In this document: one piece after another, positions 1-22,220 of the stretch
How positions within the stretch are numbered: the stretch's first letter is position 1
Layout of the letters: each line of letters opens with the position of its first letter
NCBI GenBank assembly: GCA_043797265.1
Contig: JAZDPV010000014.1
Location: 1-43,865 of the forward strand
Length of the DNA: 43,865 nucleotides
From: an archaeon
Lineage (GTDB): Archaea > Nanobdellota > Nanobdellia > Pacearchaeales > GW2011-AR1
Reading direction: 5' to 3'
Notes under the pieces: model-generated
What the model saw: only the letters and a program-made list of their open reading frames with translations
Databases searched by the model: none
What the model was told of the DNA's origin: nothing
Made by a program: the position numbers and the translations under genes

Positions 1-399
1 ACTGCTGCACTCCGTAGAGCTAGGAATAGTATCTCAGATTCCTTCTCGGGGCGACTCCGCTAAGAGCCCCTAACGATCATCGCCTTGGTAGGCAGTTACC
101 CCACCAACAAGCTAATCGTCCGCAGTCTCATCCTCAGGCTCGAGCAATTCACTTTTTCAAGAGATAAATAAAAGTATCTAGCGAAAATATAAATTGCGAG
201 AAATGTTTCAGGGTGGTCGCGTTCCAGCGACAAACCCCTATCAAGTATTAGCCTCAGTTTCCCGAGGGTATTCTTGACCTGAGGGTAGATTAACTACGTG
301 TTACTGAGCAGTTTGCTTTCCCATGATGAATCAAGGAAAAAACTTGCATGTCTAAACCCAAACCAAATAGCTGCATCCTCCAGCAGGATAAACTGGAAT
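1..399 (-). rRNA. rrs: 16S rRNA gene, 5' portion (continues beyond the left window edge); carries a ~60-nt extra hairpin in the helix-10/V2 region
   Basis: Reverse complement begins ATTCCAGTTTATCCTGCTGGAGG (archaeal 16S 5' end) and contains CATGCAAG, GGGAAACTG..GCTAATAC and CTGAGA..CTACGGAGTGCAGCAG. Confidence 0.97.
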
Positions 400-4478: not shown

Positions 4479-5678
4479 TCACTTCAAACTTCGTTCAATT
4501 TCAATAACTCTGCGAAGTTTAATAAGTCTTTCCTTTCCCCAAATTCCACACTTAATAAATTGCCCCCCAAAACCGACGCAATAATCCGCCAAAATATCAT
4601 CCATCGTCTCCCCGCTCCGATGCGAAAAAATCATCACAATCTTGTTCTTCTTGCAAAACTCAACAACTCTCTTAACCTCCAAAATCGAACCAATCTGATT
4701 CGGCTTCACAATCATCGCATTAATAACTTTCCCCTCAACCGCCCGCCGAACCAACTTTAAATTCGTCGTCGTCAAATCATCCCCGACAACCAAAACATTT
4801 TTACCAATATTATTCACAATTTCTTTGAAACCCGAAAAATCTCCTTCGTTCATCCCATCCTCAACATAAAAAATCCCAAACTTCTTCACTAATCTCTCAA
4901 TATAATCCGCTTGATCAACCTTGTCCCGAATCAAATTCTTGTTCTTGTACATATAATACCCTTTATCATAAAAAGTCGACGCCGCAACATCAACTCCAAT
5001 TCGAACGCCAAATTTTTTTCCAAGTTTCTGCAAAATTTCTAAAACTTCCTCATTAGTTTTTTTTGTCATCCACGCCCCTTCATCATCTTTCTTTCCTATT
5101 CCCAGCAATTTCCTCGCAAACTCATAAGCCCTCAAATTCAAAGTCACCGCTCGCGCAAAACTTTTCTCTTTCGGAATTAATAAAAATTCCTGAAAATCCG
5201 GACGCTTCCCGTCGACAAATCTCGAATGCAATCCCCCGCCAATACAATTCCCAACCGGCATCGGCATCTTTGGCTTCAACCCGCCATTAACATCGTCGTT
5301 GATAAATTCCCACAATTCCTTTTTCCTCCACGCCGCCGCCGCCTTCAAAAAAACTCCCTCGACGATATAATTAACATTCCCACCAAATTTTCCGTGCCTC
5401 GCCTCGAACTTCCGCATCAACCCGACGACCTCCTTCAAGTCATCAACTTCCTTAATCATAAAATTCCGATGCTTCAAACTCCGGCAAAAAACTTTCAACA
5501 TCTTAAAACTATGTCCAATCCCTTTCGAACTCCACGGCTCAACCTCACTCCGCCCCCGCGACTTTCCCGTCGGCGCCGAACATTTAAAATTCCCCTCGTA
5601 ACTATCCAACTCAATCTCAATCGTCCTCTCGCCCCGCGAATCCCGAATCAATCTCGGCACAACCTCTCTAACAAACAT
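4479..5678 (-). CDS. eno: Enolase (divergent)
   Basis: DSRG, GG.H, DFQEF, DEG, GVDVAAS, VGDDL, KPNQIG, SHRSGET and IKCG motifs; rpoK-eno-rps2 synteny. Confidence 0.93.
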   Translation of the reverse strand: MFVREVVPRLIRDSRGERTIEIELDSYEGNFKCSAPTGKSRGRSEVEPWSSKGIGHSFKMLKVFCRSLKHRNFMIKEVDDLKEVVGLMRKFEARHGKFGGNVNYIVEGVFLKAAAAWRKKELWEFINDDVNGGLKPKMPMPVGNCIGGGLHSRFVDGKRPDFQEFLLIPKEKSFARAVTLNLRAYEFARKLLGIGKKDDEGAWMTKKTNEEVLEILQKLGKKFGVRIGVDVAASTFYDKGYYMYKNKNLIRDKVDQADYIERLVKKFGIFYVEDGMNEGDFSGFKEIVNNIGKNVLVVGDDLTTTNLKLVRRAVEGKVINAMIVKPNQIGSILEVKRVVEFCKKNKIVMIFSHRSGETMDDILADYCVGFGGQFIKCGIWGKERLIKLRRVIEIERSLK

Positions 5679-5726: not shown

Positions 5727-6092
5727 TTATTCAGCATCTTTCTTATTCAAAAATCTAATCACTCCAAACAACATTTTCCCTATCTCGTCCAACTCTTTCA
5801 TCAAAGAATTCTTTTTCTCGACGGTAATATACCCATTTCTAAAAGCCAGCATCAATTGATTCTCAAGTTCCTTCACGCTCCCAATAGAATTATGAAGATA
5901 AGAAATATAATCCTTTCTCGTCCGCTTCCCGCATCCCTCGGCAATATTAGAACTTATACTCTCCGCCGACCTCCTCATCTGATCACCCAAAGCATAAACC
6001 TCGAACTTCGGAAACCCCATCGTAATCTTCAAAACTTCTTCATACAAATCAACCGCCCGTCGCCAAACCTTCAACTTCTTATAATCATACAT
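5727..6092 (-). CDS. Four helix bundle protein (23S rRNA IVP / Avd-like family)
   Basis: Y..L.VW, FP..E.Y.L..Q.RRSA.SI.SNIAEG.G and GS..E...QL family signature. Confidence 0.92.
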   Translation of the reverse strand: MYDYKKLKVWRRAVDLYEEVLKITMGFPKFEVYALGDQMRRSAESISSNIAEGCGKRTRKDYISYLHNSIGSVKELENQLMLAFRNGYITVEKKNSLMKELDEIGKMLFGVIRFLNKKDAE

Positions 6093-6139
6093 ATCACAAC
6101 ATCACATACAAACTATAAAAATCTAACCCAGCCCACCCC

Positions 6140-6266
6140 CGCGGACGGCAAAGCCGTCCTACTTCCAACAAAACCAAAGTTTTTGCGGACTTCCAGAAAA
6201 AATCCTTGATTTTTTCGAACTTCCAGCATCGACAAAGTCGATGCGAACTTCCAGCGAAGCGGACTA
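6140..6266. repeat. 127-bp five-hairpin array, copy 1 (includes the rpoK TAG)
   Basis: Five triloop hairpins separated by (G/T)(A/G)ACTTCCA-type linkers; 121/127 identical to 12327-12453. Confidence 0.92.
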
Positions 6267-6659
6267 CTCAGCGTCCTCAACTTTCTCTTCGCTAATCGCC
6301 TCATCATTCTCGGACTCCTCTCCAGAATCAGCCAGCTCCATCATCTCCCCGCCCTCAGAAATATCCCTCTCTTCTTCCCTCTCCGTCCGAATTTTCTCAG
6401 CATCAGAAACCACGCTCTCCTCAATCTTAATCTTCTCAATATTCTCCTCGCTCCGTGCCGGCATCGGCCTATTAACAGAAATCGGCAAGACTCCCGAATC
6501 TAATTCCTTCTCCGCAATTCTCAACGGGTCATAATTAACACCTTCCAGCTCCTCCTCATCTATATCAATCAGCAACGGCGCATCCATCGAAATCTGCAAC
6601 CCTCTCGCCCCGATTATCCGCGCTCTTTCATACTTCGAAAATTCCTGCTTCTCAACCAT
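6264..6659 (-). CDS. rpoK: RNA polymerase subunit K (Rpo6) with acidic tail
   Basis: FSKYERARIIGARGLQISMDAP and P..IA.KEL..G.LPI.V.R. Confidence 0.95.
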   Translation of the reverse strand: MVEKQEFSKYERARIIGARGLQISMDAPLLIDIDEEELEGVNYDPLRIAEKELDSGVLPISVNRPMPARSEENIEKIKIEESVVSDAEKIRTEREEERDISEGGEMMELADSGEESENDEAISEEKVEDAE

Positions 6660-21874: not shown

Positions 21875-21986
21875 AAAATTAAATATTTTTCCACTATATA
21901 AATATATTTAATTATAGTCACCAAATCATAACTTAATCCCAAACTTCGCATCCCAATCCTAACCCCGCGTTCCCGTTCCCTTCCCC

Positions 21987-22120
21987 GCAAATTAAAATTT
22001 TAGGCGCAGGTTGTCCGTTGCGAAGCAATGGACGGCGCCGTCGAGCAATTCGCTTTCTTGAATACAAATACCAACTATCTTTCGAGAATGCAAATTGCGA
22101 GAGAAAAAATTTTAATTTGC
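21987..22120. mobile_element. MITE-like structured element with 15-bp perfect terminal inverted repeats enclosing two hairpins
   Basis: GCAAATTAAAATTTT (21987-22001) / AAAATTTTAATTTGC (22106-22120); inner GTCCGTTGC-GAA-GCAATGGAC hairpin and a 62-nt hairpin homologous to the 16S insertion. Confidence 0.6.
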
Positions 22121-22220
22121 ATTAAATCGTGAACGAAGTTCACCATCCAGAAAAAGTTGGTAAGAAAACTTAGTGTTCTTACAATATAAATCCTTTTAAC
22201 TCAAATAAACTTATAACCAA

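Follow-up and report, generated by a model that had tools for sequence, protein, structure and literature searches.

How does a 16S rRNA gene come to carry, at the position of helix 10, a hairpin that has a look-alike 22 kb further along the same contig? The window that raises this question, by which we mean the whole stretch of 43,865 nt analysed here, is contig C14 of a metagenome-assembled genome (G000; 625 kb, 18 contigs, 83% complete) and opens inside a 16S rRNA gene, whose 5' part (model positions 1-339) occupies 1..399 on the minus strand (cmscan, RF01959, 259.7 bits, E 3.8e-73). The contig start truncates the gene and the remainder is absent from the assembly; BLAST with the loci of four relatives found no further 16S piece in G000, leaving this as its sole assembled 16S. 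Whole-genome family searches for 16S and 23S gave no match, a result of little weight, as they also missed the truncated 16S of the window itself. The relatives used for comparison are MAGs labelled Candidatus Woesearchaeota, Pacearchaeota or Nanoarchaeota.

An earlier note on this sequence had estimated that the 5' part of the gene is about 60 nt too long, and this excess was confirmed. While the 399 nt span model positions 1-339, 65 nt of them stand opposite only 8 model positions (cmscan), and the corresponding span measures 324-344 nt in the 28 relatives whose 16S spans were compared, a 29th locus being partial. MAFFT alignment shows a single gap of about 61 columns in 28/28 relatives. The extra nucleotides occupy the helix-10 position, with h9 on one side and the 3' strand of h7 on the other. 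Here G000 reads GAAACATT, followed by the insert (TCTCGCAATTT...GAATTGCTCGA) and GCC, whereas the relatives read GAAA-CATATG/CACGTG/CTCGTG-CC and have only about 6 unpaired nt and no helix at the site. The closest relative, G023, is likewise without the insert, with a flank that is about 95% identical and a syntenic upstream region (80% over 1705 nt).

The limits of the insert can be read from its empty site. Contigs in four public runs (X1, X2, X3 and X7) contain a joint 141->203, recorded as 'skips 61' with 'both = 0', so that the insert comprises 142-202 (61 nt, minus strand) and the empty site is GAAACAT^GAGCC in 16S sense; the value 'both = 0' means that there is neither a target-site duplication nor microhomology. 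The empty site, the gap in the relatives, cmscan, the fold and a covariance model all mark the same hairpin, and the interval of 140-201 (62 nt) first proposed is shifted slightly, its quoted letters being the reverse complement of what the 16S strand contains. The insert-free contigs differ from G000 at 1 position in 64 nt (records 11 and 24, runs X2 and X7), hence an insert-free strain exists that is nearer to G000 than any GTDB relative. In runs X2, X3 and X7, of which X2 and X3 are guessed to be DNA, window 145-192 has zero cover, which we read only as the insert-bearing strain missing from those contig sets. Taking the relatives and the near-identical strain together, which all lack the insert, the insertion event is recent. 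A second, insert-free rRNA operon may also exist, the assembled 16S consisting of the first 339 model positions only.

As the contig begins inside the 16S gene, and as rRNA genes often misassemble in metagenome bins, the insert could be thought an assembly chimera at a MAG contig end. Yet a 133-nt contig in another public RNA run, which may or may not be the source sample, crosses both junctions with 0 mismatches, and correct 16S sequence aligns to the model on both sides of the insert, making a chimera highly improbable.

The likeness to the second locus was then put on a quantitative footing. As first noticed, 140-201 and 22041-22102 are both 62 nt long and match ungapped at 43/62 positions, with the first 11 and last 11 positions identical, and both fold as hairpins. 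None of 100,000 shuffles of the 16S copy reaches 43 (maximum 33), and the next best unrelated 62-mer, with both strands of the window considered, reaches 34; the element's own palindromic reverse strand scores 38. The two copies also find each other in a within-genome BLAST over 625 kb (E = 4.3e-5), and a leave-out HMM built from 16 other family members, containing neither window copy, recovers both at full length (E = 0.018 for the 16S copy and E = 5.6e-9 for the 22-kb copy). The paired stem changes claimed for the two copies held in part: one pair is fully compensatory (A-U vs G-C, alignment columns 12/55), two others are one-sided changes to G-U, and in the 22-kb copy a third pair (19/48) is not formed. 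One could still argue that the block is ordinary length variation of helix 10 and its resemblance to 22041-22102 accidental, given that both are AT-rich hairpins with only 69% identity whose apical halves differ. The shuffles, the identical 11-nt ends, the full-length HMM match of the 16S copy and the presence of some 6 nt rather than a helix in all 28 relatives speak against this, and we give it almost no credence.

Both copies belong to a repeat family, here called H. Searches with nhmmer give about 21 full-length copies in G000, 20 of which are recovered by an HMM made from 18 aligned copies, among them a previously missed one on C16, and a covariance-model scan of the relatives, which the earlier note had proposed as a check, detects H in 41/49 genomes of the genus with 1-29 copies each, among at least 309 matches across the genus, 150 of them listed. 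The insert in the 16S gene scores 59.7 bits with covariance model R1, having itself been among the training rows. The 18 aligned copies share a single hairpin of 13 pairs, and 97.4% of the 234 cells pair, compared to 83.0 +/- 1.6% in shuffles (0/500 reach this value) and 30-51% in slid controls. Moreover, 8 of the 13 pairs show compensatory change (7/500 shuffles) and 29 cells are compensatory (0/500 shuffles). The claim that a dispersed hairpin has inserted at the helix-10 position is thus upheld by its absence from 28/28 relatives, by the insert-free form in public contigs and by a covarying repeat family, within whose variation the 16S copy nests.

The highest conservation in H is found at unpaired positions, namely A14, an AAG run and two 2x2 loops, and this pattern in the alignment points to recognition of the folded form. 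The two strands differ in how well they fold: the 16S-sense strand has 200 Watson-Crick, 28 G.U and 1 A.C cells, whereas the opposite strand has A.C mismatches at all 28 G.U cells and tandem G.A in place of both TC x TC loops (in part by inspection). The copies end as (C)GAGCAATT...AATTGCGAG. H is one long hairpin without duplication and so differs from a MITE, with its terminal inverted repeats and target-site duplication. Integron attC sites have R''/R' core sites (RYYYAAC ... GTTRRRY) and an adjoining cassette array; in H no GTTRRRY core was seen by eye, and its copies lie beside tRNAs and not in cassette arrays.

The locus 22 kb away had been described as an intergenic element. It is indeed a repeat copy, although not a free-standing one: the H copy at 22041..22102 (minus strand; 43/62 to 140-201, supported by the leave-out HMM) is nested as a filled site in a larger repeat, element A. 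The left part of element A (21985..22040, plus strand) combines the AT-rich outer arm, GCAAATTAAAATTT, with a GC hairpin that is conserved and whose stem covaries in an eight-copy alignment, and the right outer arm (AAAAAATTTTAATTTGC; 22103..22127, plus strand) pairs with the left arm according to the fold and the same alignment. The composite of element A and H folds with -54.1 kcal/mol (z -6.6), and a search of Rfam at this element gave chance matches only (mir-234, E 2.9; HOTTIP, E 3.9). In general, element A has an outer stem of 15 bp that is rich in AT, a GC hairpin whose stem covaries and in which CAGGTTGTCC...GGAC is a conserved motif, and a tail with a GTGAAC-GAA-GTTCAC hairpin (window part 22103-22150); arm-like matches occur across the genus.

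Eight copies of element A are present in G000, the other seven at C12:4402, C12:102014, C15:3116, C15:4853, C17:3566, C2:26990 and C5:9992. Two of the eight are filled by H and six are empty, and H occupies one fixed position (GCGCCGT^AAAAAATTTT), so that filled and empty copies provide a second proof, besides the 16S gene, that H is a module in its own right, about 61 nt long and bounded in the same way in 16S and in element A. The 22-kb copy was considered as the direct donor of the 16S insert and rejected, being only 76% identical to it. The best match of the 16S copy anywhere in the genus is also 76% identical, its closest kin being the copies embedded in element A, and the donor copy is therefore unsampled. 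An exact 30-mer of the insert is absent from metagenome_contigs and viral_contigs, and the H family pattern is absent from viral_contigs. The reverse direction, a hairpin that arose in the rRNA and was then copied to intergenic sites, has nothing specific in its favour beyond the divergence of the 16S copy from all other copies; H occurs in 41/49 genomes, yet a search of 29 relatives' 16S loci (73.7 kb in total) found no match, and the 16S copy lies inside the family variation, rendering this order of events hardly credible.

The orientation of H follows the DNA strand. Every contig of G000 has a strong (G+T)-(A+C) strand skew (|0.19-0.32|), and the locally G+T-rich strand is the one that carries the 16S-sense form of H in 21/21 copies. 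This includes 22041..22102, which has the same orientation as the 16S copy, the minus strand being the G+T-rich one and bearing its 16S-sense form. The copies have no common direction with respect to the nearest tRNA, 10 pointing the opposite way and 7 the same way. Among the relatives (40 loci from 31 relatives), 35/45 H copies obey the rule, and where |skew| is at least 0.1 it holds in 23/28, with 5/28 exceptions. Overall, the orientation of H tracks the G+T-rich DNA strand and not the direction of the host gene, a rule that is not absolute in relatives. It is not an artefact of composition, because the G+T-rich strand contains an invariant A.A mismatch and C-containing TC x TC loops.

Such strand behaviour is known from single-strand, replication-coupled elements, i.e., IS200/IS605, REP and attC. 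H shares with PATE and REP elements the lack of target duplication, the palindromic form and the strand-specific orientation, and no conserved target tetranucleotide was seen for it. The only IS200-type Y1 transposase gene in G000 (C18:86986-87297; NF033573, 69 bits; HUH and Tyr motifs, N-terminus short) has flanking hairpins of its own that are unlike H. Y1 genes are present in 12/49 genomes of the genus compared to 41/49 for H, and 31 of the 41 H-bearing genomes are without one. With unlike hairpins and a Y1 gene missing from so many H genomes, a Y1 transposase as the mobiliser of H is unsupported. A tyrosine recombinase gene (C18:84904-85377) adjoins the IS200-type gene.

The genomic context of the other copies is dominated by tRNA genes. 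In G000, 17/21 H copies lie within 150 nt of a tRNA predicted by ARAGORN, 33/45 copies in relatives are equally close to a tRNA, and 23/54 metagenome loci with the H family pattern have a tRNA within 500 nt. A typical unit starts with a complete tRNA, followed by the reverse complement of its T-loop/T-stem and a copy of the T-stem 5' strand, and ends with H, which takes the place of T54-C56, and a repeat of the tRNA's terminal ~17 nt. Tandem arrays of such units are common, with two units after tRNA-Met and three or four after tRNA-Ile (C12:84436-84730; C9:150-640; C18:8440-8830; C5:19980-20440, one case preceding the tRNA). The duplicated tRNA 3' ends around most H copies are not accounted for by simple cut-free insertion. 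A tRNA-Pro gene is duplicated as well, one copy being split by H in the T-loop. The possibility that H copies are functional tRNA introns was discarded: removing the intervals and running ARAGORN on the joined flanks yielded a tRNA in 1/20 copies, and this sole case (C18:8710, in the T-loop of tRNA-Pro) adjoins an intact tRNA-Pro and shows no bulge-helix-bulge (BHB) geometry by inspection.

H is also found in other rRNA genes. In 6/54 metagenome loci it is part of an insertion in an archaeal 23S gene, always at the same conserved position (model ~2030, UCUUA^AGGUAG), the six contigs representing about two sequence types and hence not being independent (L187, 392-793, with L181 and L183; and L176, L179 and L209). 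In all six cases the orientation of H to the rRNA is opposite to that in the 16S gene. One sequence type, with an insertion of 402 nt, additionally has a group I intron match directly after H. At a further metagenome locus (L192), 18 nt separate an H copy at 501-557 from a match to RT-16 RNA (575-736; RF03019, 74.5 bits), an RNA motif linked to reverse-transcriptase genes.

A gene of the 23S rRNA IVP family, to which the earlier note had drawn attention, does exist in the window (5727-6092, minus strand; PF05635, 124.6 bits), and nothing ties it to the hairpin. It sits between rpoK (6264-6659) and the enolase gene eno (4479-5678) and is absent from the enolase loci of 22 relatives. G000 has five 23S_rRNA_IVP genes, and a link with H was rejected, as no H copy adjoins any of them; we treat the gene in the window as an unrelated mobile cassette. 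Upstream of it, about four small hairpins are arrayed at about 6100-6263, with CTGGAAGT leading each of them.

Whether the insert remains in the rRNA is informed by one RNA-library run. In run X1, the 133-nt contig mentioned above spans window 113-245 at a depth of 562, free of mismatches and gaps, and an exact contig covers the hypervariable, species-specific V1 region (295-364) at a depth of 360. Run X1 has zero depth at 409-700, beyond the 5' end of the 16S, showing that the signal is RNA and not carried-over DNA. In the fold of 241 nt, H forms an independent arm in the h7 multiloop, with h7, h8, h9 and h11 kept as in the model. The contig through the insert is consistent with retention and favours it, without being proof. 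The alternatives named at the outset, an expansion segment or an intervening sequence derived from a genomic repeat, are thereby narrowed: the repeat origin is supported, and the RNA contig leans towards the former.

The main competing explanation is post-transcriptional removal of the hairpin as an intervening sequence or intron, which would be either spliced out or cut out to leave a fragmented 16S, the contig through the insert then representing precursor. Run X1 does contain the insert-free joint, at a depth of 925 compared to 562 for the insert contig, these contig depths being crude and strains not separable from contigs. Moreover, several Campylobacter 16S genes carry structured intervening sequences in h10 (PMC11261738), CPR rRNA genes are described as insertion-rich (PMC11270868), and H copies themselves occur inside archaeal 23S insertions, one of them with a group I intron match. 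However, the same joint appears in runs guessed to be DNA that have no cover of the insert, so that an insert-free strain exists and explains the joint, and the insert contig, at a depth of 562, is no shallower than the species-specific V1 contig, at 360.

The junctions argue against splicing, too. In archaeal BHB introns, the exon-intron junctions show two 3-nt bulges separated by a 4-bp helix. By inspection, no such geometry is present at the 16S junctions as fixed by the empty site: AAAC, before the last two exon bases, cannot pair with UUGC, before the last two insert bases, and the foot of the 16S hairpin is a 2x2 internal loop, not a pair of staggered bulges. Neither RNase III (PF14622) nor the splicing endonuclease EndA (PF01974) was found in G000, a weak argument with an assembly that is 83% complete; the gene for PF01974 may lie in the absent 17% of the genome or be too divergent. 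ARAGORN predicts 5 intron-bearing tRNAs out of 36 in G000 despite the missing PF01974. Weighing both sides, we regard removal of the hairpin as unlikely, though well short of negligible.

We therefore consider it probable that H was recently inserted into the 16S gene at the DNA level and is retained as a new arm of the rRNA. In this scenario, a non-autonomous palindromic element of about 61 nt would have entered the 16S gene of a DPANN archaeon of the Woesearchaeota/Pacearchaeota type as DNA, presumably by a single-strand or replication-linked route and possibly guided by a putative protein that recognises the folded hairpin. Since the sense strand of the 16S gene is the one rich in G+T, the strand of H that ends up in the rRNA would be the one that pairs at 97% of cells. 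Once transcribed, H would most likely stay part of the mature 16S and form a surface arm, in effect an expansion segment of very young age, rather than being spliced or cut out. A more far-reaching interpretation, which we offer tentatively and which may well prove wrong, is that we see the birth of an expansion segment at its polymorphic stage: a replication-strand-specific hairpin transposon, mobilised as ssDNA by a non-Y1 enzyme, would seed an es3 arm, the family would at the same time remodel tRNA ends and populate 23S introns, and the mismatched loops (tandem G.A / TC x TC) would serve as a protein recognition code.

Compared to known systems, the insertion resembles several and fully matches none, the closest being a Rickettsia palindromic element (RPE) in a tmRNA gene, the helix-10 intervening sequences and PATE/SMR elements. 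An expansion segment is conserved throughout a lineage, whereas this insert is strain-specific; like an intervening sequence, it is a hairpin in a variable surface helix that varies between strains or copies. Archaeal BHB introns of 16S and 23S rRNA and of tRNA, for which transposition has reportedly been proposed in a study of Thermoproteales, are likewise short non-coding inserts common to tRNA and rRNA genes. H differs from them in having no BHB motif at the 16S junctions or at the copy in the tRNA-Pro T-loop, in occurring in both orientations to tRNA and in a genome in which EndA was not found.

Bacterial helix-10 intervening sequences are excised by RNase III, leaving a fragmented 16S, and they are not known to be copies of a dispersed genomic repeat. 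Here, in contrast, there is a repeat family of about 21 copies, an RNA contig that runs through the insert, and no RNase III gene found. With the Campylobacter cases the insert shares the helix, the structured hairpin-type form and a presence that varies by copy or strain; those are about 230 bp long, (PMC11261738), compared to 61 nt in an archaeon here. Of the RPEs, 526 are reported in R. bellii, with 53 in protein genes and one in the tmRNA gene (available portion of PMC1458961). Like H, they are short palindromic repeats of a reduced genome that are tolerated inside essential genes, including a structural RNA gene, and the same portion of PMC1458961 mentions none in rRNA. Unlike H, they belong to another domain of life and have no sequence relation to it, the link to tRNA ends and the DNA-strand rule being features of H. 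With the transposase-free palindromic repeats of the PATE/SMR/REP type (Haloquadratum, PMC3119063), H has in common the non-coding length, the palindromic form, the lack of target duplication and the nesting in other repeats; its strand-specific orientation is what single-strand DNA elements of the IS200/IS605 kind would lead one to expect. H departs from these in that the only Y1 gene has no matching hairpins, Y1 is missing in 31/41 H genomes, and no conserved target tetranucleotide was seen.

Helix 10, the site of the eukaryotic es3, emerges from the very junction that holds the insert. In E. coli, 16S rRNA tolerates 31-nt Tn5 insertions in h10: of the 16 sites that proved functional, 3 lie there, and at two of these the doubling time equalled that of the wild type. 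Helix 10 (es3) is described as a cluster of tolerated insertions, and expansion segments are proposed to begin as genetic insertions (PMC2441807). The E. coli insertions were engineered and left target duplications of 9-10 nt (PMC2441807), whereas the present one is natural, without duplication and polymorphic between strains. In the literature searched, there is no description of a dispersed repeat that forms a 16S insert in archaea, and the H repeat family of DPANN archaea is undescribed there.

The idea that expansion segments originate from insertions rests mostly on engineered insertions (PMC2441807). Our findings add a natural insertion at the es3 hot spot that is traceable to a donor family, polymorphic between near-identical strains and present in RNA. 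In addition, a mobile hairpin that adds 61 nt to 16S V2 affects amplicon length and alignment for DPANN archaea, and the link between hairpin orientation and the G+T-rich strand provides a testable handle on the movement of a repeat family that is widespread in DPANN archaea.
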